NCBI RefSeq assembly: GCF_000497125.1
Contig: NC_090602.1
Location: 1,302,001 to 1,366,000 of the forward strand
DNA length: 64,000 nt
Direction: 5' to 3'
DNA from: Spironucleus salmonicida
Taxonomy: Eukaryota
The position numbers and the translations under genes are program-made. The notes under the pieces were generated by a model, which had not been told where the DNA came from, did no database searches, and saw only the letters and a program-made list of their open reading frames with translations. Positions 1-48,405 of the stretch are shown here, piece after piece; the stretch's first letter is position 1; each line of letters opens with the position of its first letter.

Positions 1-281
1 ATATCATATTAGATATCGGATAGAAACTTAGACGAACTCGTCAAAACCGGTATAATATTGTCCACTAGGGCCTTGTTAAGCTGTTCTAGCGTCGTTACCC
101 GACGTGCAGTTACCCCCTCTACCTCGAATCCTCCTACAAAAACCGCTTAGCAAAAGCTTTTCATTCGCTTTAGCGAAGTGGGATGATCTAGTTCTAGGCA
201 GAATGCTGTGATTTATAACCGGGACAGGTAGATGGTCACGGCAGTGCCAACCTCTCCCGCACCGATTACAAGGACTCTCAT
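1..281 (-). CDS. yqeB: YqeB-family protein, 5' part (runs off the window)
   Basis: ATG at 281, MRVLVIGAGEVGTAVTIYLSRLQ...; identical to the complete copies. Confidence 0.8.
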
Positions 282-899
282 TCGAAATAATATATGAATC
301 AATATATAATAACGGCTTCCACTTACATCTGAAATTAAACATAGAATGCCTGCACATTCACTGCAATGATTTCCACCATTATTGACTCCTATGTACAATT
401 CAACGATGCAAAATTCTATCCCACAAATTGATTTTATTATCCGTTGATTGTGTTAGCTCAACTTTGTTACTGCATTTAAGTCTTATAGGCAACATTGTTG
501 AAGCCCTTAATATTTGTGAAGATTTGAAGCCATGATCGTAATTTCACATTAGTAACTAACGCAATAGTGTCCTTTTAGGCTTATAGAAATATATGATATA
601 TAGAAAACAAATGACAGGTGGTTCCAGTTAAAATAATGGCCTTAATTTATATTTAAGCTTCATACTGGAGAAAAGTTAGAGTTTTTCATTTTATTTATTT
701 ATACTAGCCGTTTATGAAATTTATATCGTACTCCTGACTGGCACTCGTAATTTTCGATATTTAATCATCATTTTATCTGTGCCTCCAATGATAGAGCTTA
801 AACACTACTGTTACATTTTTTGTTCTTTGGCAATTTTCTCAAACCGATGAATTTATCCTGCTACACACCTTCACACCCTCAGCATCAGTTGAGGAGCGC

Positions 900-1100
900 G
901 TGATCCGGCCGCTGCTGGACTGCACGCAGGGGGACGTGCTGGCATTCACCGGTGCGTTCGCGGTGGAATTCGTGAGCTCCGACGCAGCCGAGTGCGACTT
1001 CGCTGCACGGGGAGGTGGAAAGGAGAGCGAAAGGGGGAGAATCCGGCGGTTCCTAGACGGGCGCGACTACGGCTGGTTCGCGGAAATGGGCTATGAATGA
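900..1100 (+). pseudogene. 3' fragment of a TtcA/Ctu1-like tRNA thiolation gene (copy 1)
   Basis: VIRPLLDCTQGDVLAF...EC...SERGRIRRFL resembles the TtcA C-terminal IRPL region. No upstream SGGKDS PP-loop; in-frame TGA at 789. Confidence 0.55.
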
Positions 1101-1113
1101 GAAACGGGTACAA

Positions 1114-1464
1114 TCACTTGTTGGAGGAATACTTGGAGATGGCAGACTCGGCGTGAGACTGGGCGGCCTTGTAGAGCTCACCACCGTTAAGCACGAGTTT
1201 GGCGGCAGCGGTGATCTGGGACTTACCAATGGTGTTACGGTGGTGCTGTCTGGCGATCTGGGAGGCTTCGGAGGCGATTCTCTCGAAGAGATCGTTGACC
1301 ATGGAGTTCATGGCGGCCATGCACTGCTTGGAGACACCACAGTCAGCGTCCTTGCCCTGGAAGGCATCAGAGGCCTTGAGAACCTTGAGGATGTAGGTAC
1401 CATAGGTCTCTACTCTCTTCATCTTACGGGTAGCTTTGGCTTCAGGGGCGGATCCAAGGGACAT
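1114..1464 (-). CDS. H2B: Histone H2B (copy 1)
   Basis: ETYGTYILKVLK, MNSMVNDLFERIASEAS, TI..QI..AAKLVL.GEL.K.A, AISKY; 116 aa; ends AAG TGA. Confidence 0.97.
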   Translation of the reverse strand: MSLGSAPEAKATRKMKRVETYGTYILKVLKASDAFQGKDADCGVSKQCMAAMNSMVNDLFERIASEASQIARQHHRNTIGKSQITAAAKLVLNGGELYKAAQSHAESAISKYSSNK

Positions 1465-1472
1465 TTTAAATA

Positions 1473-1481
1473 GTGGAGTGG
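1473..1481 (-). promoter_or_regulatory. C-rich promoter motif CCACTCCAC upstream of H2B
   Basis: Lies 8 nt upstream of the ATG. CCACTCC also precedes RPS20, endosulfine, poly(A) polymerase and the genes at 32327 and 45226. Confidence 0.65.
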
Positions 1482-1691
1482 AAATGCCAATCTAGGCACC
1501 TGGGCCTAGTCACTTGCGCAGGCTCACTTTTGCGAAATCACTATACTCCACATTATTATATTGCATATACCTCGTATACTCGGGAGAAAGCGAAATAGCC
1601 CAAAGATGGCTGAGTCTACTTTTGTGTACACTTCATCCTACAACGGCGACTTAATGACTTCGCACCTAGGCAGGCAGCCTCCAGTGGTCAG

Positions 1692-2531
1692 TCAGATAGC
1701 ACGATCTCTGATGCTCTACCACGCCATTAACTCACAAATCACGCTGCCGGCGACACACCTGGCGCGCGTGCTCAAGGTGTACACGAACGCAGCATCGCAT
1801 AGCGGGTCGATTTCACACAGCAGCTGGTTCTTTAAGACTACAGCCCCTGTCTCAAGTAGACCTAACAGCAGTCCAGATACAGGCGCACATACGCTGAGCT
1901 GGCCTCGGCGATGGGTCACAGCATCCATTTTTCGGTTGAGGCACTCGCCGGACTCTGTCTACAGGCCCCCCTCATCAGACTCAATGACTCCTATCGGGTC
2001 TCCTATTTTTACAAACTCTCCAATCCCTCGTTTTGCTGTCCACCTCCCGCCGATCTCAGCGCGGGCCTCGCGTTCGAATGAATATCCACCGATTAGCTCT
2101 GGCTCCGACATTTTCTACTGTTTCTAGCGTGTTCCCGCATAGCGCCCCGACTTTTAGATTACAATACTGGCCGTTAGACCCTCTATTCCCCAATTGGTTG
2201 AAATTGTCACCCCTTGGAATTTGAATTGGGTGGGTGCGGTGTTAACAACAATATCATATTAGATATCGGATAGAAACTTAGACGAACTCGTCAAAACCGG
2301 TATAATATTGTCCACTAGGGCCTTGTTAAGCTGTTCTAGCGTCGTTACCCGACGTGCAGTTACCCCCTCTACCTCGAATCCTCCTACAAAAACCGCTTAG
2401 CAAAAGCTTTTCATTCGCTTTAGCGAAGTGGGATGATCTAGTTCTAGGCAGAATGCTGTGATTTATAACCGGGACAGGTAGATGGTCACGGCAGTGCCAA
2501 CCTCTCCCGCACCGATTACAAGGACTCTCAT
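1692..2531 (-). CDS. yqeB: YqeB-family selenium-dependent molybdenum hydroxylase system protein, 279 aa
   Basis: Continuous frame with TAR=Gln. N-terminal VLVIGAGEVGTAV, LELDHPTSLKR..SFCQAV..G..EVEGVTA; C-terminal LIGGYSFERE.RA, IGEFVKIGDPIG, APVSGLLLGLL, EIDP, TLSTRARCVAGSV. Confidence 0.82.
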
Positions 2532-3149
2532 TCGAAATAATATATGAATCAATATATAATAACGGCTTCCACTTACATCTGAAATTAAACATAGAATGCC
2601 TGCACATTCACTGCAATGATTTCCACCATTATTGACTCCTATGTACAATTCAACGATGCAAAATTCTATCCCACAAATTGATTTTATTATCCGTTGATTG
2701 TGTTAGCTCAACTTTGTTACTGCATTTAAGTCTTATAGGCAACATTGTTGAAGCCCTTAATATTTGTGAAGATTTGAAGCCATGATCGTAATTTCACATT
2801 AGTAACTAACGCAATAGTGTCCTTTTAGGCTTATAGAAATATATGATATATAGAAAACAAATGACAGGTGGTTCCAGTTAAAATAATGGCCTTAATTTAT
2901 ATTTAAGCTTCATACTGGAGAAAAGTTAGAGTTTTTCATTTTATTTATTTATACTAGCCGTTTATGAAATTTATATCGTACTCCTGACTGGCACTCGTAA
3001 TTTTCGATATTTAATCATCATTTTATCTGTGCCTCCAATGATAGAGCTTAAACACTACTGTTACATTTTTTGTTCTTTGGCAATTTTCTCAAACCGATGA
3101 ATTTATCCTGCTACACACCTTCACACCCTCAGCATCAGTTGAGGAGCGC

Positions 3150-3350
3150 GTGATCCGGCCGCTGCTGGACTGCACGCAGGGGGACGTGCTGGCATTCACC
3201 GGTGCGTTCGCGGTGGAATTCGTGAGCTCCGACGCAGCCGAGTGCGACTTCGCTGCACGGGGAGGTGGAAAGGAGAGCGAAAGGGGGAGAATCCGGCGGT
3301 TCCTAGACGGGCGCGACTACGGCTGGTTCGCGGAAATGGGCTATGAATGA
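3150..3350 (+). pseudogene. 3' fragment of a TtcA-like gene (copy 2)
   Basis: Identical to 900-1100. Confidence 0.55.
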
Positions 3351-3363
3351 GAAACGGGTACAA

Positions 3364-3714
3364 TCACTTGTTGGAGGAATACTTGGAGATGGCAGACTCG
3401 GCGTGAGACTGGGCGGCCTTGTAGAGCTCACCACCGTTAAGCACGAGTTTGGCGGCAGCGGTGATCTGGGACTTACCAATGGTGTTACGGTGGTGCTGTC
3501 TGGCGATCTGGGAGGCTTCGGAGGCGATTCTCTCGAAGAGATCGTTGACCATGGAGTTCATGGCGGCCATGCACTGCTTGGAGACACCACAGTCAGCGTC
3601 CTTGCCCTGGAAGGCATCAGAGGCCTTGAGAACCTTGAGGATGTAGGTACCATAGGTCTCTACTCTCTTCATCTTACGGGTAGCTTTGGCTTCAGGGGCG
3701 GATCCAAGGGACAT
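3364..3714 (-). CDS. H2B: Histone H2B (copy 2)
   Basis: Identical to copy 1. Confidence 0.97.
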   Translation of the reverse strand: MSLGSAPEAKATRKMKRVETYGTYILKVLKASDAFQGKDADCGVSKQCMAAMNSMVNDLFERIASEASQIARQHHRNTIGKSQITAAAKLVLNGGELYKAAQSHAESAISKYSSNK

Positions 3715-3941
3715 TTTAAATAGTGGAGTGGAAATGCCAATCTAGGCACCTGGGCCTAGTCACTTGCGCAGGCTCACTTTTGCGAAATCACTATACTCCA
3801 CATTATTATATTGCATATACCTCGTATACTCGGGAGAAAGCGAAATAGCCCAAAGATGGCTGAGTCTACTTTTGTGTACACTTCATCCTACAACGGCGAC
3901 TTAATGACTTCGCACCTAGGCAGGCAGCCTCCAGTGGTCAG

Positions 3942-4781
3942 TCAGATAGCACGATCTCTGATGCTCTACCACGCCATTAACTCACAAATCACGCTGCCGG
4001 CGACACACCTGGCGCGCGTGCTCAAGGTGTACACGAACGCAGCATCGCATAGCGGGTCGATTTCACACAGCAGCTGGTTCTTTAAGACTACAGCCCCTGT
4101 CTCAAGTAGACCTAACAGCAGTCCAGATACAGGCGCACATACGCTGAGCTGGCCTCGGCGATGGGTCACAGCATCCATTTTTCGGTTGAGGCACTCGCCG
4201 GACTCTGTCTACAGGCCCCCCTCATCAGACTCAATGACTCCTATCGGGTCTCCTATTTTTACAAACTCTCCAATCCCTCGTTTTGCTGTCCACCTCCCGC
4301 CGATCTCAGCGCGGGCCTCGCGTTCGAATGAATATCCACCGATTAGCTCTGGCTCCGACATTTTCTACTGTTTCTAGCGTGTTCCCGCATAGCGCCCCGA
4401 CTTTTAGATTACAATACTGGCCGTTAGACCCTCTATTCCCCAATTGGTTGAAATTGTCACCCCTTGGAATTTGAATTGGGTGGGTGCGGTGTTAACAACA
4501 ATATCATATTAGATATCGGATAGAAACTTAGACGAACTCGTCAAAACCGGTATAATATTGTCCACTAGGGCCTTGTTAAGCTGTTCTAGCGTCGTTACCC
4601 GACGTGCAGTTACCCCCTCTACCTCGAATCCTCCTACAAAAACCGCTTAGCAAAAGCTTTTCATTCGCTTTAGCGAAGTGGGATGATCTAGTTCTAGGCA
4701 GAATGCTGTGATTTATAACCGGGACAGGTAGATGGTCACGGCAGTGCCAACCTCTCCCGCACCGATTACAAGGACTCTCAT
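3942..4781 (-). CDS. yqeB: YqeB-family protein
   Basis: Identical to 1692-2531. Confidence 0.82.
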
Positions 4782-5399
4782 TCGAAATAATATATGAATC
4801 AATATATAATAACGGCTTCCACTTACATCTGAAATTAAACATAGAATGCCTGCACATTCACTGCAATGATTTCCACCATTATTGACTCCTATGTACAATT
4901 CAACGATGCAAAATTCTATCCCACAAATTGATTTTATTATCCGTTGATTGTGTTAGCTCAACTTTGTTACTGCATTTAAGTCTTATAGGCAACATTGTTG
5001 AAGCCCTTAATATTTGTGAAGATTTGAAGCCATGATCGTAATTTCACATTAGTAACTAACGCAATAGTGTCCTTTTAGGCTTATAGAAATATATGATATA
5101 TAGAAAACAAATGACAGGTGGTTCCAGTTAAAATAATGGCCTTAATTTATATTTAAGCTTCATACTGGAGAAAAGTTAGAGTTTTTCATTTTATTTATTT
5201 ATACTAGCCGTTTATGAAATTTATATCGTACTCCTGACTGGCACTCGTAATTTTCGATATTTAATCATCATTTTATCTGTGCCTCCAATGATAGAGCTTA
5301 AACACTACTGTTACATTTTTTGTTCTTTGGCAATTTTCTCAAACCGATGAATTTATCCTGCTACACACCTTCACACCCTCAGCATCAGTTGAGGAGCGC

Positions 5400-5600
5400 G
5401 TGATCCGGCCGCTGCTGGACTGCACGCAGGGGGACGTGCTGGCATTCACCGGTGCGTTCGCGGTGGAATTCGTGAGCTCCGACGCAGCCGAGTGCGACTT
5501 CGCTGCACGGGGAGGTGGAAAGGAGAGCGAAAGGGGGAGAATCCGGCGGTTCCTAGACGGGCGCGACTACGGCTGGTTCGCGGAAATGGGCTATGAATGA
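5400..5600 (+). pseudogene. 3' fragment of a TtcA-like gene (copy 3)
   Basis: Identical to 900-1100. Confidence 0.55.
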
Positions 5601-5613
5601 GAAACGGGTACAA

Positions 5614-5964
5614 TCACTTGTTGGAGGAATACTTGGAGATGGCAGACTCGGCGTGAGACTGGGCGGCCTTGTAGAGCTCACCACCGTTAAGCACGAGTTT
5701 GGCGGCAGCGGTGATCTGGGACTTACCAATGGTGTTACGGTGGTGCTGTCTGGCGATCTGGGAGGCTTCGGAGGCGATTCTCTCGAAGAGATCGTTGACC
5801 ATGGAGTTCATGGCGGCCATGCACTGCTTGGAGACACCACAGTCAGCGTCCTTGCCCTGGAAGGCATCAGAGGCCTTGAGAACCTTGAGGATGTAGGTAC
5901 CATAGGTCTCTACTCTCTTCATCTTACGGGTAGCTTTGGCTTCAGGGGCGGATCCAAGGGACAT
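5614..5964 (-). CDS. H2B: Histone H2B (copy 3)
   Basis: Identical to copy 1. Confidence 0.97.
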   Translation of the reverse strand: MSLGSAPEAKATRKMKRVETYGTYILKVLKASDAFQGKDADCGVSKQCMAAMNSMVNDLFERIASEASQIARQHHRNTIGKSQITAAAKLVLNGGELYKAAQSHAESAISKYSSNK

Positions 5965-6191
5965 TTTAAATAGTGGAGTGGAAATGCCAATCTAGGCACC
6001 TGGGCCTAGTCACTTGCGCAGGCTCACTTTTGCGAAATCACTATACTCCACATTATTATATTGCATATACCTCGTATACTCGGGAGAAAGCGAAATAGCC
6101 CAAAGATGGCTGAGTCTACTTTTGTGTACACTTCATCCTACAACGGCGACTTAATGACTTCGCACCTAGGCAGGCAGCCTCCAGTGGTCAG

Positions 6192-7031
6192 TCAGATAGC
6201 ACGATCTCTGATGCTCTACCACGCCATTAACTCACAAATCACGCTGCCGGCGACACACCTGGCGCGCGTGCTCAAGGTGTACACGAACGCAGCATCGCAT
6301 AGCGGGTCGATTTCACACAGCAGCTGGTTCTTTAAGACTACAGCCCCTGTCTCAAGTAGACCTAACAGCAGTCCAGATACAGGCGCACATACGCTGAGCT
6401 GGCCTCGGCGATGGGTCACAGCATCCATTTTTCGGTTGAGGCACTCGCCGGACTCTGTCTACAGGCCCCCCTCATCAGACTCAATGACTCCTATCGGGTC
6501 TCCTATTTTTACAAACTCTCCAATCCCTCGTTTTGCTGTCCACCTCCCGCCGATCTCAGCGCGGGCCTCGCGTTCGAATGAATATCCACCGATTAGCTCT
6601 GGCTCCGACATTTTCTACTGTTTCTAGCGTGTTCCCGCATAGCGCCCCGACTTTTAGATTACAATACTGGCCGTTAGACCCTCTATTCCCCAATTGGTTG
6701 AAATTGTCACCCCTTGGAATTTGAATTGGGTGGGTGCGGTGTTAACAACAATATCATATTAGATATCGGATAGAAACTTAGACGAACTCGTCAAAACCGG
6801 TATAATATTGTCCACTAGGGCCTTGTTAAGCTGTTCTAGCGTCGTTACCCGACGTGCAGTTACCCCCTCTACCTCGAATCCTCCTACAAAAACCGCTTAG
6901 CAAAAGCTTTTCATTCGCTTTAGCGAAGTGGGATGATCTAGTTCTAGGCAGAATGCTGTGATTTATAACCGGGACAGGTAGATGGTCACGGCAGTGCCAA
7001 CCTCTCCCGCACCGATTACAAGGACTCTCAT
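6192..7031 (-). CDS. yqeB: YqeB-family protein
   Basis: Identical to 1692-2531. Confidence 0.82.
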
Positions 7032-7649
7032 TCGAAATAATATATGAATCAATATATAATAACGGCTTCCACTTACATCTGAAATTAAACATAGAATGCC
7101 TGCACATTCACTGCAATGATTTCCACCATTATTGACTCCTATGTACAATTCAACGATGCAAAATTCTATCCCACAAATTGATTTTATTATCCGTTGATTG
7201 TGTTAGCTCAACTTTGTTACTGCATTTAAGTCTTATAGGCAACATTGTTGAAGCCCTTAATATTTGTGAAGATTTGAAGCCATGATCGTAATTTCACATT
7301 AGTAACTAACGCAATAGTGTCCTTTTAGGCTTATAGAAATATATGATATATAGAAAACAAATGACAGGTGGTTCCAGTTAAAATAATGGCCTTAATTTAT
7401 ATTTAAGCTTCATACTGGAGAAAAGTTAGAGTTTTTCATTTTATTTATTTATACTAGCCGTTTATGAAATTTATATCGTACTCCTGACTGGCACTCGTAA
7501 TTTTCGATATTTAATCATCATTTTATCTGTGCCTCCAATGATAGAGCTTAAACACTACTGTTACATTTTTTGTTCTTTGGCAATTTTCTCAAACCGATGA
7601 ATTTATCCTGCTACACACCTTCACACCCTCAGCATCAGTTGAGGAGCGC

Positions 7650-7850
7650 GTGATCCGGCCGCTGCTGGACTGCACGCAGGGGGACGTGCTGGCATTCACC
7701 GGTGCGTTCGCGGTGGAATTCGTGAGCTCCGACGCAGCCGAGTGCGACTTCGCTGCACGGGGAGGTGGAAAGGAGAGCGAAAGGGGGAGAATCCGGCGGT
7801 TCCTAGACGGGCGCGACTACGGCTGGTTCGCGGAAATGGGCTATGAATGA
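7650..7850 (+). pseudogene. 3' fragment of a TtcA-like gene (copy 4)
   Basis: Identical to 900-1100. Confidence 0.55.
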
Positions 7851-7863
7851 GAAACGGGTACAA

Positions 7864-8214
7864 TCACTTGTTGGAGGAATACTTGGAGATGGCAGACTCG
7901 GCGTGAGACTGGGCGGCCTTGTAGAGCTCACCACCGTTAAGCACGAGTTTGGCGGCAGCGGTGATCTGGGACTTACCAATGGTGTTACGGTGGTGCTGTC
8001 TGGCGATCTGGGAGGCTTCGGAGGCGATTCTCTCGAAGAGATCGTTGACCATGGAGTTCATGGCGGCCATGCACTGCTTGGAGACACCACAGTCAGCGTC
8101 CTTGCCCTGGAAGGCATCAGAGGCCTTGAGAACCTTGAGGATGTAGGTACCATAGGTCTCTACTCTCTTCATCTTACGGGTAGCTTTGGCTTCAGGGGCG
8201 GATCCAAGGGACAT
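7864..8214 (-). CDS. H2B: Histone H2B (copy 4)
   Basis: Identical to copy 1. Confidence 0.97.
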   Translation of the reverse strand: MSLGSAPEAKATRKMKRVETYGTYILKVLKASDAFQGKDADCGVSKQCMAAMNSMVNDLFERIASEASQIARQHHRNTIGKSQITAAAKLVLNGGELYKAAQSHAESAISKYSSNK

Positions 8215-8441
8215 TTTAAATAGTGGAGTGGAAATGCCAATCTAGGCACCTGGGCCTAGTCACTTGCGCAGGCTCACTTTTGCGAAATCACTATACTCCA
8301 CATTATTATATTGCATATACCTCGTATACTCGGGAGAAAGCGAAATAGCCCAAAGATGGCTGAGTCTACTTTTGTGTACACTTCATCCTACAACGGCGAC
8401 TTAATGACTTCGCACCTAGGCAGGCAGCCTCCAGTGGTCAG

Positions 8442-9281
8442 TCAGATAGCACGATCTCTGATGCTCTACCACGCCATTAACTCACAAATCACGCTGCCGG
8501 CGACACACCTGGCGCGCGTGCTCAAGGTGTACACGAACGCAGCATCGCATAGCGGGTCGATTTCACACAGCAGCTGGTTCTTTAAGACTACAGCCCCTGT
8601 CTCAAGTAGACCTAACAGCAGTCCAGATACAGGCGCACATACGCTGAGCTGGCCTCGGCGATGGGTCACAGCATCCATTTTTCGGTTGAGGCACTCGCCG
8701 GACTCTGTCTACAGGCCCCCCTCATCAGACTCAATGACTCCTATCGGGTCTCCTATTTTTACAAACTCTCCAATCCCTCGTTTTGCTGTCCACCTCCCGC
8801 CGATCTCAGCGCGGGCCTCGCGTTCGAATGAATATCCACCGATTAGCTCTGGCTCCGACATTTTCTACTGTTTCTAGCGTGTTCCCGCATAGCGCCCCGA
8901 CTTTTAGATTACAATACTGGCCGTTAGACCCTCTATTCCCCAATTGGTTGAAATTGTCACCCCTTGGAATTTGAATTGGGTGGGTGCGGTGTTAACAACA
9001 ATATCATATTAGATATCGGATAGAAACTTAGACGAACTCGTCAAAACCGGTATAATATTGTCCACTAGGGCCTTGTTAAGCTGTTCTAGCGTCGTTACCC
9101 GACGTGCAGTTACCCCCTCTACCTCGAATCCTCCTACAAAAACCGCTTAGCAAAAGCTTTTCATTCGCTTTAGCGAAGTGGGATGATCTAGTTCTAGGCA
9201 GAATGCTGTGATTTATAACCGGGACAGGTAGATGGTCACGGCAGTGCCAACCTCTCCCGCACCGATTACAAGGACTCTCAT
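8442..9281 (-). CDS. yqeB: YqeB-family protein (terminal copy, unique upstream flank)
   Basis: Identical CDS; repeat identity stops about 50 bp upstream of its ATG. Confidence 0.82.
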
Positions 9282-10423
9282 TCGAAATAATATATGAATC
9301 AATATATAATAACGGCTTCCAGTTACATCTCGTAATTTTTTTAGAAAATGATAAGCTCAAATGATTTATACTTGTCTCATCCAAATATATTTAGAAAAGG
9401 AAAAATCTATACTCATATGTTAAAGTAATATAGATCTTACTATGAATAGTTTGTTTTACCAGATTGTTGGGTATCTATTTTTGATAAAAACTGTTTTTAT
9501 TAAGATCCTTAAAATATACGATTTTTATTAAAGTAACATTCTTTATAGTATAGAAAAGGTTAAGTAACTTCACATATGTTGTATCATTAAACAATAGCTA
9601 TGGATAATTTTACGATTCCAGAATTATTCAACCAATATCTTCAAAATGATACAACAGCAAAAATACATAAATCGATAAAACAAACTGTATAACAATTTAC
9701 AAAATTTGAATCAAAAAGTAAAAATATTAAAAAACATGATGAAAACTTGACTCCAAAATCGGAACATTTAGATACTTAAGAAAAAAATCATAAAAAGCAT
9801 ATGATTAAAGATTTTTATTAAACTCATATTAAATCATGACGTGAATGCAATTATTTAATATTAATATCAAATAACAGTATGTTATTTTTTTATTTTATCC
9901 TTTGAATTCATGGTGAATTTATTATATGAGTTGTAATAAAGACGCAACAAATTCATATGCATAAAAATAATGCTAATAATAAATAATTTGGGCATTTACT
10001 CATAAGCTTCCGTTTTATTTTAAAGGATATTGATTTTTAAGATCTTAATTGTATTAAATTAATATTAAATTAATAGATTCATATTAAAAATTATAAATAT
10101 GTAGTTATGATGTCAATAAATCTATAAAAACTAGATAGTAAATCTCAAAAAATTATTTGCGAAATACTAATACTATATTATATTAAAAATTAATAATGTT
10201 GTCTTTATAAGTTAAATAATTTTTTAATATAACATTTTAAATAATTAGTATAAAATTGCACACTATAATTTAACTAAATAGAATAACAATACTGAATCAC
10301 TAAATATAATGAAGAAAACCTTATATTTAGTAATAATTTATTACTTTTGTCAATTATTTACTTAAATAAGATTAAAATAATTAATAATAATTGAATATAA
10401 TATTTGATATACTTAATAGTTCA

Positions 10424-18465: not shown

Positions 18466-20421
18466 TCACTTTCTTTAGAAATTTTTCTTAATACTAGGTG
18501 CTGACGTTAATACAAAGCTATCTAGATTACCTTCGACCTAAGGAGTAGATCCACCAAGTTTTCCTTTTAATCTTTTTTAGTTTTTCAAATATTCCGACTC
18601 AGACATTGTAGAACTTCTAGTGAAAAATGATGAACCCAGGGATGTTTAAGATTAAGTTAGTAACTATGATACCATAATTTTTTGATTAGTTAAAACTTGG
18701 AGTTCAGTTTATGTTTACACGCATTTACCTTAACAAGCTATACTGTATAATTATTTTATTAATTATTTAACATCATTTGAAAGATTTTACTAATTTAATG
18801 TTTGTAAATATTATATTACTTATTAAGTATGTGGACAATAGTTTTCTTTTGTATTAGTCGATAAATCATTAAGCGTAAGGCCAGGAGAAAATAATTAGTT
18901 ATTATTATAATTTGTATCTGTATTTGGTTAACCGTTGGCTAAGTTCTACCCAGGCTAACCGTGGGCTAAGTTCTGCCCAGACTAACCGTTGACTAAGTTC
19001 TGCCCAGGCTAACCGTTGGCTAAGTTCTACCCAGACTAACCGTTGGCTAGGTTCTACCCAGACTAACCGTTGACTAGGTTCTACCCAGGCTAACCGTTGG
19101 CTAAGTTCTACCCAGGCTAACCGTTGACTAGGTTCTACCCAGACTAACCGTTGGCTAAGTTCTACCCAGACTAACCGTTGACTAGGTTCTACCCAGGCTA
19201 ACCGTTGACTAGGTTCTACCCAGACTAACCGTTGACTAGGTTCTACCCAGGCTAACCGTTGGCTAAGTTCTACCCAGGCTAACCGTTGACTAGGTTCTAC
19301 CCAGACTAACCGTTGGCTAAGTTCTACCCAGACTAACCGTTGACTAGGTTCTACCCAGGCTAACCGTTGACTAGGTTCTACCCAGACTAACCGTTGACTA
19401 GGTTCTACCCAGGCTAACCGTTGACTAGGTTCTACCCAGACTAACCGTTGACTAAGTTCTACCCAGACTAACCGTTGGCTAGGTTCTACCCAGACTAACC
19501 GTTGACTAGGTTCTACCCAGACTAACCGTTGACTAGGTTCTACCCAGACTAACCGTTGGCTAAGTTTTTGTTAAATTAGTTCCTATTTATTATAACATTT
19601 TCTTCAAACAAATTCCTTTTGTCTTATTTGGAAGATGTGATAATAAAACTAGGTATACCATCAGAAACTTATTCCAATTTAAACTAAGTACTCATGGTTT
19701 CTTTTTACTTTTATTTTGTTTATTTCTTATCATTATGCTGATGCTTTTTTTATTTAGCTATAGTATCTTTAACTTTAGTCACCTCTAGTGCAGAATCCTC
19801 ATTATCAATTACTTATTCTGTTTGGATTTAATTATCTTATTAAAGTATAATTTATTTTCCCTGTTACTATAGTTAAATTTCAAGTTACCTCACATCTTCA
19901 TATAATTATTCTTATGTCTTTAAACTAGACAAATATTAAGAATATAGGTTATCAGTTTGATCGACATTAGCGATACCATCATCTGGTTTATATAGCATAT
20001 TATTATTGTTTCTTTAATTAAGCTATTCTCTCAGATTTTAAATAATTTACGTATAATTTTTAACTGGAAATTTACTTAATGACAATATTTATTATAATTA
20101 TAATTCATAACTAGTTATAATGCTTTCCTGCATATTACATTTTTGAATAAGTGTGTTTTGATTATTTTGAACTGGAAAAGAAATATTAAAATTAGAAATA
20201 CTGTCTTGCATATACTTTAACAGTTCAATTTCTGCTGAATTTATCATTGATTAATAAATAGGAAGAATATTTTTTGGTTTTTCATGATCAGTGAGAGTGT
20301 TACAGTTTAATTTAGGTTCAAATAAAACATGCAATGGCCTATCTTATATTTATTTTCGCAAATTATAAAATATTTAAATGATTTACTTTTGAACACTTTA
20401 TGAAAAAAAACTTTAATCCAT
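18466..20421 (-). CDS. Hypothetical protein with a 9-aa tandem repeat, about 651 aa
   Basis: Same frame on both sides of the 27-bp array, which reads NL(A/V)NGQ(S/P)GQ; ends AAG TGA. Confidence 0.7.
18929..19565. repeat. 27-bp coding minisatellite, about 23-24 copies
   Basis: Unit ctaaccgttg(a/g)cta(a/g)gttctacccag(a/g), with three recurrent dimorphic sites. Confidence 0.97.
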
Positions 20422-20524
20422 TTTTTTATTATATTTATTATATACTTATATAAAATTAAAGAATTGTTATTAATAAAAACCTTATATATTAAATTACTTC
20501 ATTTAGGTTTTGGATATCTAATAA

Positions 20525-24105: not shown

Positions 24106-26172
24106 TCAAACAATATTTTCACCTTGTATAATTCTCTTTTCATACTAATCTATAGCCTATCCTTTCAAACGTAGGAAATATTCTCTTTCTTTAAGCTAAA
24201 GTCTACCAACTTCTAGATTACATGCATCACCAAAAGCTTCTAAACTTATTTTAAACAAAATTTCATCTCTAAGATGCTTAATTAATTATTTAACACGTTT
24301 TAGTTTGGATTTTTATATCTTAATTCTATCTTATTTTTCTTATACTGCTTGCTTCTTAAGTTTCAAATATCCCTATTAATCTTGTAACTTAAATTTTTTA
24401 AGGGTCTATTCAACAGTTTCCCCCTAAACTCCTACGTCAGTCTATTCTTCAGTTTAAGTCGAGATTGTATTTGCTTAAGGACTTGAGAAATCTGTTATTT
24501 ATAGTTAACTTCCGCTCAGTTGAGTAAGAAATATATATTTTTGCTACTCAATAACCTATATTCTGTATAGATCATCTCTTGAATTTAGATATTATGGAAA
24601 TGGTGAGATTGTAAGATATTCATAACCTTTATCAAAAGAAAACGAGAAATAAAAGGGAATAGAATATTGTAAGTTTTAGTCTGATTTATATCCAAATGAA
24701 CTAGATTTGAATAACTGGATAACGTCGTAATTTTCACTTAATGAAATCGTATATGAGGCTGGTGCAAAAAGTGTTTACTATATGATGAATGTTTTATAAA
24801 AATGTCTTTTAGACGAGGTTAAGCCGACCAAACTTTAAAGATATAAACTTAATTTTTCATTTGTAATCCCAGAGTAATCTATGAAATCTTAAATAGATGG
24901 TATTTCAACTGATAAAGAACAAATATTATTAGGATGCTAAATTGACGTAACAAATATATTTTATATAAGGGCTACTGATGAGTTTACAGTATTTAGGTGC
25001 TAAAATGCTTCTTTATTTATGTTTATAAAACCGATAGCTGAAGACTCGAATGATATAGGAAGAACTGACATTCTTGAAGCGAATTAGTTGGAATCTGCAA
25101 ACGGCGTGAGACGTGTAATACTTGAGCCCTTTGTATCAATTGTGGTACAATTATTTAATTGAAGTATAATTTATATCTTACCCGGCGATGTTTTTTCCAT
25201 TGGGGACCAATTAGAATAATTTTAGTTAATCAGCGAGGAAAAAGGTTTAATAATAGTATTATCAACACAATGAGATAATTCACATGGCATGTTGAAAGGT
25301 TTCAAAGAGTTAAACATAGACCATTATCCTAGCAACAATTTCTCTAAATTAACCAGATGAGTACTCTGATTAGAGATATCATACTATTATGTCTACATGG
25401 ATTGTTAATTTTTGAAGAATACTAAAATATCGATATATTCAATTAGAGAATTGCTAGGTTTCAGTCTTGGAATATTAAATGATAAGTTTAAAGAAGAGTT
25501 TTCTATGTTATATTTCTCCATGGATATGTAAATTTATAGTGAAAATAATGTAAGCTATATATTTAATAGTTAAATCATTATATGCAAAGTAAAATGATCT
25601 TATTAGTCCGCATATTATAATTACTGGGTAGATACAATTGGAATATATTATAATTATCCCTCTTATAGAGGCACCTGCTAAGAATAATCCATAAATTAAA
25701 AAATAACAGATTAGGGCTGTAATATTTGTTGAGATTTAGGTAAAATCCATTCATGCTGTTGATAATTCAATAATGGAAAAGATATATATTTTAAATTGAA
25801 ATCTTAACAATATTCTTTGTAGAAAGTTTTCAAATTCATATTAATACCTTTTTCCTAAAATGTTATTTCGGAAATATTAGAGATGGACGATAATTTAAAT
25901 TAATATTCATGTAAAGTTATTACTAACTTTTGCTTTTATTCATACAAAGTAAATTATAAAAAGTAAGAAAGATCTGATAAATTAAAAATATTAGGAATTT
26001 TAAAATCAAATAACTGTTGTTTTAATGATAAAGGAACTATTATAGAGTTAGATATATATGGTATATTTAAAGGATTAATATTATCAGAAATGCATAACTT
26101 TAGGTTTATTTGATTGCATTGAGGATAAAGAGTTAAATTCAGTGAGTTGAAGTAGATTGTAAATTTATTCAT
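24106..26172 (-). CDS. Hypothetical protein, about 688 aa
   Basis: Frame stays open with TAR=Gln wherever checked, from MNKFTIYF to GENIV TGA. Confidence 0.6.
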
Positions 26173-26583: not shown

Positions 26584-28470
26584 ATGATCCCCCTGTTATA
26601 TCTCACTACACTTAAACCGCACATCTAATACCCTCTGATGAAACAACCTAAACATTAGATTAAAACATATATAGCATAATAAATTAAGAATGCTAACGTA
26701 CCACCATCTACTACTCCACCGTCAGTTCTCGTTGTACCAGGTTTTGCGGACTCTGATAATGCTGATAGAGGTATTGCAGCATCTTTAAAAACAGTAGCAG
26801 CCACAATAGATCAATATGATACTATTATTATTGTAGGTGCCCATTTTCCAGACACGTGCGGATCATCACCACCGTCTCGACCTTTGACCGCCTGGTGGGG
26901 GGACGAAGTGGAAACTTCATTAGGAAATTTTGATGTGGATGTTGATTTACGCGCAAAATTCGGACGATCAACTGGTTAAATATAACAAGATAACATCACA
27001 GATGAGTTGGTTTCGGAAAGTAGTTTTTACGATTAAATTTTCTTGTGGACACGTGCTCTATTTCCTGATAAAAAACCTAAAACTAAAGTCCTTCCATTGC
27101 TCATTCATGCCACTTTGCGCGATTAAGTATAGTTTTCGGCTTAAGTGCTTAGCGATAACTTATTTAAGCCAGCCGAAGGCGGATAATATGGAGTCGCAGG
27201 TGATGGCAAAAGATACTTGGTCATCATACCTATTTAGGTATCATAAGGATTGGAATTATATTAAAATATTTATATTGAGAATATTTTGCTAGATTTAACG
27301 TTTAACAATAAAGTGCAAGATTTTGAGTAATGGCTTTATTATTTGACTGGTAATACTGGAGCTACATTCTCTAAAACTATTGCAAGCTAGATTTTAGTTG
27401 TCAGATTAAGTTAATTAGCTTCTAGGGCAGTTCCTCACAATAAACCGACTGATCCTAACTGGGAATGGCGAATGTTAGATTATTATACAACTTATGATAG
27501 TTTAATGGATATACAAAAAATGAAGGATTCAGATTATATTTCTATTGACGAAGATTAATTAGAAAAAACAAGTAAAGTTTTCACTGAAGAGAACGACTCT
27601 CCAAAGGGGCATTATATTTATTATTCGATGTCGCTTAGTTTAGAACCCCCTCTGCATTAATCATAGACAACAAAAGGCAAAACTGCAAAAATGCCAGTAC
27701 CAGTTTCTTCACCTGAACCGTTTTCTTAGGGAGCTATGAATGAGCTAATGATTGCTGCTCAATTAACAATGCAAGGGAAAAAATATAATAAAAAAGAAGA
27801 ATTCTAAAAGTATAAATCGCTGTTGGCAAAACCTGCTCCATTTTCAATTAGAGTATATGTTCTAGCAGATCATTCACATGAGTAGTAAATAATTAACGAT
27901 ATGATTAAGAAAAACGTTTTTAATGATCCTAATCACATTAAGAATTTAACAGGGTGTTGTGAAGAACGTGTTTTATTTGAAGAGAAAATTGTGAACTTCT
28001 TCCCTAACGAATCTGTTATTCAAAGTGTAATTTCTAACACGAAAAAATTATATTAGGAAAAATTATCATATTCTTCTTTAAGAAAATTCGAGAAGCAGTT
28101 GTAATAAAAGTATAAAGAATTAGTTGCATCTGGTGATCTTCCTAAGAGTAAATTAAAGGAGTTAGACTTTAATCTTAAACAAAATTTAATTATTGAGATC
28201 TAGGTTTTCCACTCTTGGGAGTATACTGAGTTATTTAAGCTTACAGAAGCTAAAGGCTCATTCATTACCCTTTGGGATGGAAAGACCGCAGTATGTGAAG
28301 TGCCTGATACTAGGCCAGGTGTTCCACATATCATATTCTTTAGACTAACCCAGTGTTCTCTTAAGGCCGGGTTAGAGCCATGGGATTGGTAGCGTGCAAA
28401 AGTTCATACTTATTCTCGTACTCGCTTAACAAAGCCAGTCTGGTAATTTGTACCTAAAGATGAACTCTGA
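26584..28470 (+). CDS. Memo (AmmeMemoRadiSam B) plus AMMECR1 (AmmeMemoRadiSam A) fusion with C-terminal KDEL, 628 aa
   Basis: Memo-like TIIIVGAHF, W...VETSLGNFDVDVDL, KVLPLLI; AMMECR1-like LTGCC, IIEIQV, KAGLEPWDW; ends PKDEL TGA. Confidence 0.72.
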
Positions 28471-39739: not shown

Positions 39740-41017
39740 TCACCATATTGTAATGTCAACCTCAGCTCCTGTGTTAATATTTTCAAGAAATACTTACCCA
39801 TCTTCTAAAATTACTTTGACATCCTCTTAGCCTTATACAAATTTCGCATTTGTTGCAAATAACTTCCAATATTGTGAAATTTCAATTTTTGATCTAGCAG
39901 AAATTTCTCCTGTAACAAATTTTAGGGACAGCGACTGATTCTCAAAGTAAAATGTTTATTTGACATGTGTCCCAAAAACAGCCGAAAAATATGGATAACT
40001 AAGTTATTAAATAATTTCAGGTTACTATAAAAGCGATATTGCATTAAGGTCTCCATACCCTTTTAAAGAAGGATAAATCCACGTTTTACCACTTATTTAT
40101 GTAAGCTATTACTTTATAATACTAAAGTCTCTTCCGAATTAACCTATAATAAAATTAGATTAAGTATTATCTTCTACAGCTTAAAAATTACTTTTAAATT
40201 TGTCTAATATTTTTGTATTGTCAATATAATTATAAATTAGGCAATTATCAGATATTATTTCACCAAATTTATCAAATACATCATTGATCGCCCCTGAAAT
40301 CAGAATAGATTTATTTGTATTTATACTTTGTAAAACTTTAGAATAAAACTAAGGTAAAATATCTGAATTCAGATTATTGATATAATTCCCATATTATGGT
40401 TCTGTAAAAGGTATATAACTAATAATGTTATCAAAATAATCAAATTCCTTTATCACAACTTTCCAAAATTACTAAATGATGTCCATAAAGCTATCATTAA
40501 AATATAAATGTTCAACTCCATTAATATTATAATAAGTTTATTCTGGAGTTATAAGTTTACACTGATCTTAGTTTATGGATCCGTTACTATTTCTAGTTAT
40601 CTGTTGCAATAATGGATATGGAAATTCATGAGATGAATCTGTGGGTAAAGTTTAGCCAAGTAACCACTATGGAAACCCTTAACCGCAATTTAGTTCACTT
40701 AGATGTTTTTAATACATTGCAATAATTACGCTAATGTTATTATCTTTACAAAGTTAAACTACTCTTTTCATCTCAGATAAATAACTTTAACTTGGAGTAT
40801 TATCTTTTTAAAATAATCCAGGTAGCATAAAGTTTAACTGTATAAGATTAATTTTGTTTCTTTATAAAAATTTAACATCGTCATATGAAAAGCTATTATC
40901 ATCGAATCCTAATTACGTTGGATAGTAAGGATATTATATAGGAGTAACTTGTACCCCTTTATAGTACATAAAAGCTTCACCATCAGTGTTACAAAGCTAT
41001 AGTATCAAGACTAACAT
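39740..41017 (-). CDS. GH5 endoglycoceramidase-like protein, secreted, probably inactive, 425 aa
   Basis: Short signal-like N-terminus; INLIQL, YL..MKRVV, CGQGFPQW, FWKVV..F...DNIISY..FTEP, FIIGQFG, WIY..LKGYGD. Confidence 0.72.
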
Positions 41018-47448: not shown

Positions 47449-48405
47449 ATGCTCATTGATCTTCATTCACACTCCACTCATTCAGATGGTTCATACTCTC
47501 CATTCTTATTAATATAGCATGCCATAGCACTTAATCTGACTTATTTTGCAATAACAGATCATGATAATATCGATTCGATCAAAACACTTGAAAAATACAA
47601 ATTTCCTCATAATTTTACTTATATTCCTGGTGTTGAGATCACCACAAAATCAAAATGTAACAATGAAATATATCACTTAATAGTGTTGTTTCCATCCAAA
47701 ATGAAGCCTAATATTACACCATTTGCAGATATTTTTGAAATTTAGAAAAAAGATAGAAAAATTAGAATGGAAAAGCTTTGGATAAAAATTTAGGAAACTA
47801 ATAATCTCAATTAATCATATTAAGACTTTTAAACCTACTTTGGTACACTTAATTCAACGTAAGTTCAAAAGATCCATTTTGCATAATTTCTGACTATCAA
47901 AAATATTTGTGTGGATATCAATTCCTGTTTTAAAACCCATTTAGACATAGTAGTAAAATCTAGTGAATATCTGTTATTAGAAGATATGATTGCTTTAGCA
48001 AAACATGAAAATGCTTACCCAATTTTGGCACATCCTTACTATTTAGCGAAAAACAAATCATCTGTTGATAAGTGTATCCCTATTTACTAAACTCTTGGAC
48101 TGCGGGCGTTAGAAGTGGAACATCCAGAATAGGATTCTGACCAAAGGGATAATTTAAGAAAATTAGCTAGAGAATTGGGTCTTCAGGTAAGTATTGCAGG
48201 TGATTTTCACGGTCCTGAGCGCGAGAAAAATGGTTATTTTTTGGGAAATTTAGAGGGAAATAAACGAACTATGGAATGGGAAAAAGTATATTTGATGAAA
48301 GATATGGGATATAATTCAGGTATGGATATTTAGAAAGGCTTGGCTATGTCTGTAGCGCTTTTGGCATAAATCGGAGTTGTTATATTTATGGCTTGCCGTG
48401 GGTGA
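47449..48405 (+). CDS. PHP-domain phosphoesterase (TrpH/YciV-like) with a C-terminal hydrophobic anchor, 318 aa
   Basis: DLHSHSTHSDG, AITDHD, IPGVEIT, LAHP, LEVEHP, GDFHG; tail GLAMSVALLAQIGVVIFMACRG. Confidence 0.9.

Follow-up and report, generated by a model that had tools for sequence, protein, structure and literature searches.

The 64,000-nucleotide stretch of DNA analysed here (positions 1,302,001 to 1,366,000 of contig NC_090602.1, assembly GCF_000497125.1; hereafter the window) carries on its minus strand, at 1692..2531, an open reading frame (ORF) whose protein, P0001, is by sequence a true but outlying homologue of bacterial YqeB, the least understood of the selenium-trait markers. 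The ORF is one of at least five identical copies in a 2250-bp tandem repeat that also holds a histone H2B gene, a fact that a preliminary description of the locus had missed. Frame, predicted fold and N-terminal nucleotide-loop motifs are kept and charged signature residues are gone, and we favour, with middling confidence, the view that P0001 is a YqeB-fold protein that has been retained and repurposed.

The frame opens under NCBI genetic code 6, running from the ATG at 2531 to the TGA at 1692-1694 (279 codons plus the stop) and reading eight in-frame stop triplets, four TAA and four TAG, as glutamine. Under table 11 it is broken, and no ORF of at least 80 residues in that code covers 1692-2531, in keeping with the earlier remark that the gene is invisible in a standard-code track. 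The N-terminus of P0001, MRVLVIGAGEVG, aligns with those of its bacterial relatives, and the ATG at 2783 offered upstream by the ORF listing is therefore probably not the true start. There is no internal TGA, against 3.1-5.0 expected (P 0.004 in a mononucleotide shuffle, P 0.03 in a codon-position shuffle), and the other five frames of the same stretch contain 1-8. Since TAA or TAG makes up 8 of its 14 glutamine codons, the gene must have resided in a code-6 genome for some time; the corresponding count for H2B is none of six, and other window genes use mostly TAA or TAG.

Searched against NCBIfam in this translation, as the preliminary description had proposed, P0001 had a single clear match, TIGR03309 (YqeB), at an E value of 8.1e-31 and 107.4 bits. 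The homology is thus significant, but the score is less than half the curated equivalog cutoff of 220 bits, which five of eight bacterial comparators pass (343, 338, 272, 266 and 229 bits; the other three scored 209, 180 and 164). A phmmer search of 1.84 billion representative proteins returned 599 matches at E≤1e-3 and 107 at E≤1e-10, with P0001 itself alone at E≤1e-30 and the best non-self matches at 32-34% identity. Eleven of the 599, when aligned, were all YqeB-type (27-31% identity to P0001), and relatives aligned in a single stretch over residues 3-275, that is, over the full length. Sixty-five matches came from a word-indexed search covering 5.8 billion proteins. In a 66-sequence alignment, with rows hand-picked from the top single-domain matches of both protein searches, the other 65 sequences share a median identity of 40% among themselves, compared with 29% (maximum 33%) to P0001. 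For P0067, a typical member, relatives at 50-55% identity are numerous, whereas P0001 reaches at most 34% to any member. This low identity and sub-cutoff score, together with significant homology, mark P0001 as a true YqeB homologue but an outlier.

What sets it apart is chiefly the loss of conserved residues. The motifs used here as family signatures (KRN, GLGPGF, ETNRGHxLGR, LRGL, DPRG and SDK) were derived from our own alignments and taken from no published definition. P0001 keeps 30 of the 54 columns conserved at 80% or more in the 66-sequence alignment, the lowest count of all its rows; the others keep fractions of 0.64-1.00 (median 0.90). The preliminary description had recognised YqeB-like motifs at both ends and an eroded GPGF/ETxRGH region between them, and the distribution of the kept columns bears this out: 11 of 13 up to residue 96, 3 of 18 over residues 97-141 and 16 of 23 beyond (142-279). 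The N-terminal GxGxxG loop is intact and the GxGxxG...P...RR...VEG series is retained. In the central block a 7-residue deletion removes the KRN segment, its lysine included, in both alignments that we made (A1 and A2), GLGPGF reads STNWGI (including G113N and P114W), and ETNRGH reads QKS, a 5-residue deletion having taken out RGH and the E126Q glutamine being encoded by TAA. Further losses at conserved positions are R38K, D97N, G135R, R223L, K237L, R244L and D255T, and LRGL, DPRG and SDK have likewise been lost or changed, so that most signature residues of the YqeB family are gone from P0001. An insert of about 25 residues (roughly 185-210) separates two strands of the C-terminal domain, slightly longer than the 20 or so residues noted earlier for the biotinyl/lipoyl-like hairpin. 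All length differences from the family, the deletions of 7 and 5 and this insert, are in frame, and P0001 can be aligned from residue 1-3 up to about 275.

An AlphaFold2 model of P0001 built with the 66-sequence alignment had a mean predicted local distance difference test score (pLDDT) of 87.9 and a predicted TM-score of 0.86, with 197 of 279 residues at pLDDT 90 or above. Block means fell to 60-71 over residues 111-140, the eroded block, and residues 195-204, within the insert, were the sole segment of three or more residues below 50. In structural comparison the modelled C-terminal domain resembled biotinyl carriers (2d5d: Z 10.6, rmsd 1.7, 68 aligned residues; 1bdo: Z 10.3, and a Foldseek target TM-score of 0.75). 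It would thus share the barrel-sandwich hybrid fold of biotinyl/lipoyl carrier domains and differ from them in being broken by the low-confidence insert of about 25 residues. The match of the family profile to such domains is weak (E 0.001-0.02). The remainder of the model resembled Rossmann-type folds, among them the XdhC-like 3on5_B (Z 9.6, rmsd 3.1, 123 aligned residues), a score tied with many generic Rossmann folds. Some bacterial YqeB proteins have been labelled 'xanthine dehydrogenase accessory factor' by JGI annotators, and the Rossmann-like part of the model is predicted to share a fold with the XdhC/CoxI molybdenum cofactor (Moco)-insertion chaperones; the resemblance is structural only, with no Pfam match of P0001 to XdhC at E≤1, where the sole hit was to the NAD-binding family Sacchrp_dh_NADP (a marginal E 0.09). 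A profile search of the PDB yielded no solved YqeB-family structure, its best matches being generic Rossmann and lipoyl/biotinyl domains at E≥5.7e-4. As modelled, P0001 retains the two-domain YqeB layout, a Rossmann-like part and a barrel-sandwich hybrid.

P0001 thus resembles bacterial YqeB/EF2563 in its full-length homology, its size (279 residues compared with about 265), its predicted two-domain layout and its N-terminal motifs, and departs from it in score, in identity of at most 34%, in its lost signatures and in its insert. It also departs in setting, since the gene is eukaryotic, uses code 6, is amplified with H2B and does not lie near selD, yqeC or xdh genes.

To characterise the host we examined 26 of the 66 long code-6 ORFs listed for the window, plus H2B. 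Uninterrupted genes among them included those for CCT-theta, an SNF2 helicase, a kinesin-associated protein, poly(A) polymerase, an XPD-like helicase, an FGGY kinase and peroxiredoxin. Thirteen genes checked for codon use, the YqeB-like gene and H2B included, all end in TGA, and all but H2B use TAA or TAG for glutamine. The window CCT-theta is 62% identical to that of Hexamita inflata, 51% to that of Giardia and at most 47% to those of named non-diplomonad eukaryotes. Given code 6 and a CCT-theta nearest to Hexamita inflata, the host is a Hexamitinae diplomonad. All relatives of P0001 that we found are prokaryote-type YqeB proteins at no more than 34% identity, and the gene is best explained as a descendant of bacterial yqeB gained by lateral transfer, as the preliminary description had suggested. 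Among the 65 word-search matches, most of which are unnamed, there was no close homologue from any named eukaryote; Hexamita inflata proteins are within the database. The phylogeny called for earlier was obtained with FastTree (66 sequences, 268 columns) and placed P0001 with P0132 and P0160, two long-branch sequences of low conservation (support 0.78 and 0.86). This grouping is possibly long-branch attraction, and the tree therefore names no donor. P0067 was considered as a eukaryotic sister, having an insert at the same site, and was discarded. It comes from a metagenome, ordinary bacterial YqeB proteins are its relatives at 50-55% identity, and in the tree the two proteins are not sisters. 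Three bacterial loci (metagenome-assembled genomes of Anaerolineales, Bacillota and Anaerolineaceae) match P0067 at 41-42% identity.

The gene lies in a perfect head-to-tail tandem repeat that occupies 1..9321 with a period of 2250 bp, about 4.14 units being in the window. Unit-to-unit identity is 1.0 in three successive comparisons (starts 1, 2251 and 4501), and the first mismatch falls at 7072 versus 9322. Each unit encodes on the minus strand the YqeB-like protein and, 227 bp downstream, histone H2B. Besides the copy at 1692..2531, identical minus-strand copies of the YqeB-like ORF lie at 3942..4781 (the same translation one period on), at 6192..7031 (within the listed ORF 6192..7283) and at 8442..9281, a 279-residue ORF that is the first of the array in the direction of transcription; the repeat ends at 9321, 40 bp upstream of its ATG. 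A fifth copy is cut by the window start, its 5' part lying at 1..281 on the minus strand, where ORF 3..533, open at its 3' end, gives the same N-terminal residues. The window thus holds four complete YqeB-like copies and one cut copy, and four of H2B. Since it begins inside a repeat unit, the array may continue upstream; the protein cluster to which P0001 belongs has five member sequences, all on one 1.61-Mb contig.

The H2B coding sequence (116 residues; Pfam PF00125, E 2.7e-13; no TAA or TAG) lies at 1114..1464 on the minus strand, with identical minus-strand copies at 3364-3714, 5614-5964 and 7864-8214, the fourth inferred from the perfect periodicity. Its third-position GC (GC3) is 0.72, compared with 0.20-0.39 for eleven other window genes. 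Between the YqeB-like ATG and the next unit's H2B stop lies a spacer (2532..3363) with 27-36% GC up to about 3100 and 61% thereafter (150-bp bins); short code-6 ORFs were all that we found in it, with no supported gene, and over the whole window Rfam at gathering thresholds and a tRNA scan each gave no match. The repeat has about 46% GC, compared with about 29% for the other 55 kb of the window (4-kb bins), a contrast that agrees with the one published for duplicated regions in the 2022 reference genome of Spironucleus salmonicida, reported there as 44.7% versus 30.7% elsewhere (PMC9509377).

The unit is also present in assembled contigs of four sequencing runs from one study. That these are cDNA was deduced from poly-T ends, the RNA label itself being a guess, and the contigs carry no strand, end or level information. 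All four runs hold 93-97% of the words sampled from one repeat unit, and their contigs over the ORF (1101-2867, 1132-2522, 1376-3179 and 1346-3179) show no differences and each continue into H2B; the contig of run X4 stops 9 nt short of the YqeB-like ATG, and those of the other runs cover the whole ORF. Contig depth, and stretches with little or no coverage such as 2540-3179 in X4, were left out of account as evidence. The head-to-tail joint (3249 to 1000) is likewise found in contigs of all four. At 1101 every run has loose poly-T ends, some with adaptor sequence, which points to a poly(A) addition site there, 13 nt past the H2B stop (3' UTR 1101..1113, minus strand). We take these ends to be poly(A) tails of H2B mRNA, and the material was therefore read as poly(A)+ cDNA; Spironucleus 3' UTRs are described, in a passage of PMC2874811, as extending about 13 nt after the TGA. 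The YqeB-like ORF is thus very probably present in RNA and may lie on transcripts shared with H2B.

Two smaller features of these contigs deserve mention. At 1426, within H2B, run X3 has A>G on a contig that spans the YqeB-like ORF, which may reflect a paralogue, an allele or an error. At 3146-3179 (896-929 in the unit), three of the four runs have a contig of about 1046 nt that shares just 34 nt with the repeat (1 mismatch) and then continues into unrelated GC-rich sequence. Another locus or transcript therefore carries a short element also found downstream of H2B, and the contig breaks at 3179 probably reflect this branch and not a transcript end.

A eukaryotic YqeB in Spironucleus is already known, having been published in 2014 and entered in public annotation. 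Xu et al. (2014; PMC3916229), in the passages concerned, reported 'three identical homologs' of the gene in S. salmonicida as the first eukaryotic case; they cite Haft & Self (2008) and Zhang et al. (2008) and suggest that selenium may find use outside canonical selenoproteins. In a supplement of Stairs et al. (2019; PMC6397501, file 3), SS50377_13473 and SS50377_13475 are among the rows annotated 'YqeB family', with log2 fold changes of -0.13 and -0.70 in the first case, 0.79 and 0.15 in the second; in these rows the adjusted P falls below 0.05 in one of four contrasts only (-0.70, 0.032). The 2014 paper describes the gene without the name YqeB, and full-text searches of the literature listed no paper that pairs YqeB with diplomonad, and none that holds YqeB and Spironucleus together in its main text. 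The window gene is most probably this published gene: each is present in several identical copies in a Hexamitinae host with code 6, and, in the passages available, the GC contrast of duplicated regions is common to both. The 2014 passages count three copies, compared with four full and one partial in the window, and H2B linkage and motif loss are absent from the published passages and table rows. Our additions to the 2014 publication are modest. They are the finding that P0001 is the most degenerate YqeB member among the sequences compared and falls short of the equivalog cutoff; the H2B-coupled tandem array of at least five copies; the contiguity of the ORF with H2B in RNA-type contigs; and, for the searched part of the annotation table, the lack of a partner molybdenum enzyme.

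The search for partners bears on the central claim of the preliminary description, that the gene marks a labile-selenium molybdenum-hydroxylase trait. Passages of PMC3916229 report for S. salmonicida a tRNA-Sec, selenocysteine machinery, three selenoprotein W paralogues and a bacterial-type SelD-NifS fusion; 'molybd' occurs in its main text only in the reference list. A word search of part of the PMC6397501 table gave no occurrence of xanthine, aldehyde oxidase, XdhC, MoaA, MoCF, molybdate, MOSC or YqeC. In the same part, the rows with 'molybdopterin' are two ThiF/Uba-type 'MoeB' proteins and Urm1, and the 'molybdenum cofactor sulfurase' has class V aminotransferase domains only. The 26 scanned ORFs of the window include no Mo-hydroxylase or Moco-type gene. 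The table counts, which concern words in part of the table and not sequences, speak against a Mo hydroxylase system. In Clostridioides difficile, according to part of PMC11448449, deletion of yqeB mimics that of selD on xanthine and urate, and deletion of yqeC has no phenotype; the same report gives no known biochemical function for YqeB.

The sequence of events that we favour would be the following. A bacterial yqeB gene of the EF2563/TIGR03309 family would have entered the nuclear genome of a diplomonad by lateral transfer and resided there long enough for 8 of its 14 glutamine codons to become TAA or TAG. Together with H2B it would have become part of the 2250-bp unit, amplified to at least five identical tandem copies, from which it is probably transcribed. 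In-frame deletions and substitutions have removed nearly all the conserved charged residues of the central block and several C-terminal ones; the protein would presumably no longer perform the canonical YqeB step in the maturation of Se-dependent molybdenum hydroxylases and would survive as a repurposed ligand-binding or carrier-type protein. The preliminary description had named repurposing as its alternative, and it fits the evidence better than a working selenium-molybdenum trait. On the role itself we can speculate that P0001 passes on selenium or sulfur from the bacterial-type SelD-NifS fusion. A more specific version, which we rate as improbable, is that a stripped-down YqeB works without YqeC or a Mo hydroxylase, for example as a carrier or adaptor moving activated selenium (or sulfur) from SelD-NifS to a new target. 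Were this so, it would be a molybdenum-independent use of the machinery of the 'third selenium trait', and co-amplification, possibly co-transcription, with H2B would tie the dosage of the YqeB-like protein to the cell cycle.

Several observations weigh against function and retention. A TGA-free frame at P 0.004-0.03 is moderate evidence only, and the antisense frame 1093-2436 is likewise open under code 6, so that long TGA-free frames are not rare here and the openness of the YqeB-like frame is by itself weak evidence. This plus-strand ORF (447 codons, antisense to both H2B and the YqeB-like gene) was not taken as a gene and shows how easily spurious ORFs arise when TGA is the sole stop. The YqeB-like ORF, at 50% GC, is nearly flat by codon position (0.54/0.44/0.53), unlike H2B and the other window genes, a pattern that weak codon-level constraint would give. 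Our searches found no orthologue from another diplomonad. Finally, the loose ends listed for the contigs of the four runs include no poly(A) end at the YqeB-like stop (about 1680), and coverage of the ORF may therefore stem from a long H2B-containing or read-through transcript and not from an mRNA of its own.

These points fit well with a gene that has lost its function and is carried as a decaying passenger of the neighbouring H2B, the unit having been amplified for histone dosage. We consider this main rival possible, if the less probable of the two. With TGA as the only stop, a gene can pass for intact long after its function has gone. The lowest count of conserved columns among 66 members (30 of 54), the deletion of KRN and RGH, the 107 bits compared with a cutoff of 220, the flat codon-position GC and the open antisense frame would all follow readily from decay. 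So would contiguity with H2B in RNA-type contigs whose only listed poly(A) end is that of H2B, the small published fold changes (one of four contrasts at adjusted P below 0.05, -0.70 and 0.032, in the rows cited) and the missing YqeC and Mo-enzyme terms in the searched part of the table. Decay is harder to reconcile with three indels that are all in frame, with zero internal TGA, and with an N-terminal domain that keeps 11 of 13 conserved columns, GxGxxG included, in a model with 197 of 279 residues at pLDDT 90 or above; moreover, free drift from the roughly 40-50% identity typical of the family to about 30% would be expected to bring frameshifts. It is on these grounds that we prefer retention with changed function, leaving a small chance that none of the readings named here is right.

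The claim that P0001, with SelD, matures a Se-dependent Mo hydroxylase in the protist, and so marks a working trait, we regard as quite unlikely. Homology to YqeB is full-length, the passages of PMC3916229 describe for S. salmonicida a SelD, within the SelD-NifS fusion, along with further selenium machinery, and a missing YqeC would alone not be fatal, as growth of C. difficile on xanthine and urate needs yqeB and not yqeC (in the part of PMC11448449 cited above). Against these stand a score below half of an equivalog cutoff that five of eight bacterial comparators pass, and the loss of conserved residues, most of the charged signatures included (R38K, D97N, G113N, P114W, E126Q and the RGH deletion among them). 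No Mo-hydroxylase or YqeC term occurs in the searched table part, and 'molybd' in PMC3916229 is confined to references. Of the preliminary description, then, the eukaryotic homologue and its lateral acquisition are supported, and the working selenium-molybdenum hydroxylase trait is not; a eukaryotic YqeB would matter if through it the trait were shown to cross domains. Bacterial contamination or a mis-assembled repeat, suggested by the 17 GC points separating the repeat from its flanks, by copies that are 100% identical and by nearest relatives that are all bacterial-type, is very improbable given eight in-frame TAA/TAG codons that would truncate the protein in any bacterium, the presence, 227 bp away on that strand, of a eukaryotic H2B to which contigs of four of four independent runs connect the ORF, the head-to-tail junction in contigs of the same runs, and the generally GC-rich duplicated regions described for S. 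salmonicida in the PMC9509377 passage.

Elsewhere in the window, two ORFs belong to families that are typically bacterial-type and may be further candidates for lateral transfer: a PHP-domain protein at 47449-48405 (plus strand; PF02811, E 6.8e-9) and a weak GH5 cellulase-like ORF at 39740-41017 (minus strand; PF00150, E 2.7e-5). Two long code-6 ORFs, at 26584-28470 (plus strand, 628 residues) and 24106-26172 (minus strand, 688 residues), have no Pfam match at E≤1e-3. Another long ORF, at 18466-20502 on the minus strand, encodes 678 residues in code 6 with 101 TAA/TAG codons and contains, at 18929-19566, a 27-bp tandem repeat (23.6 copies, 92% matches) that encodes about 24 copies of the 9-residue unit NLVNGQSGQ and its variants, both glutamines of each unit being TAG.

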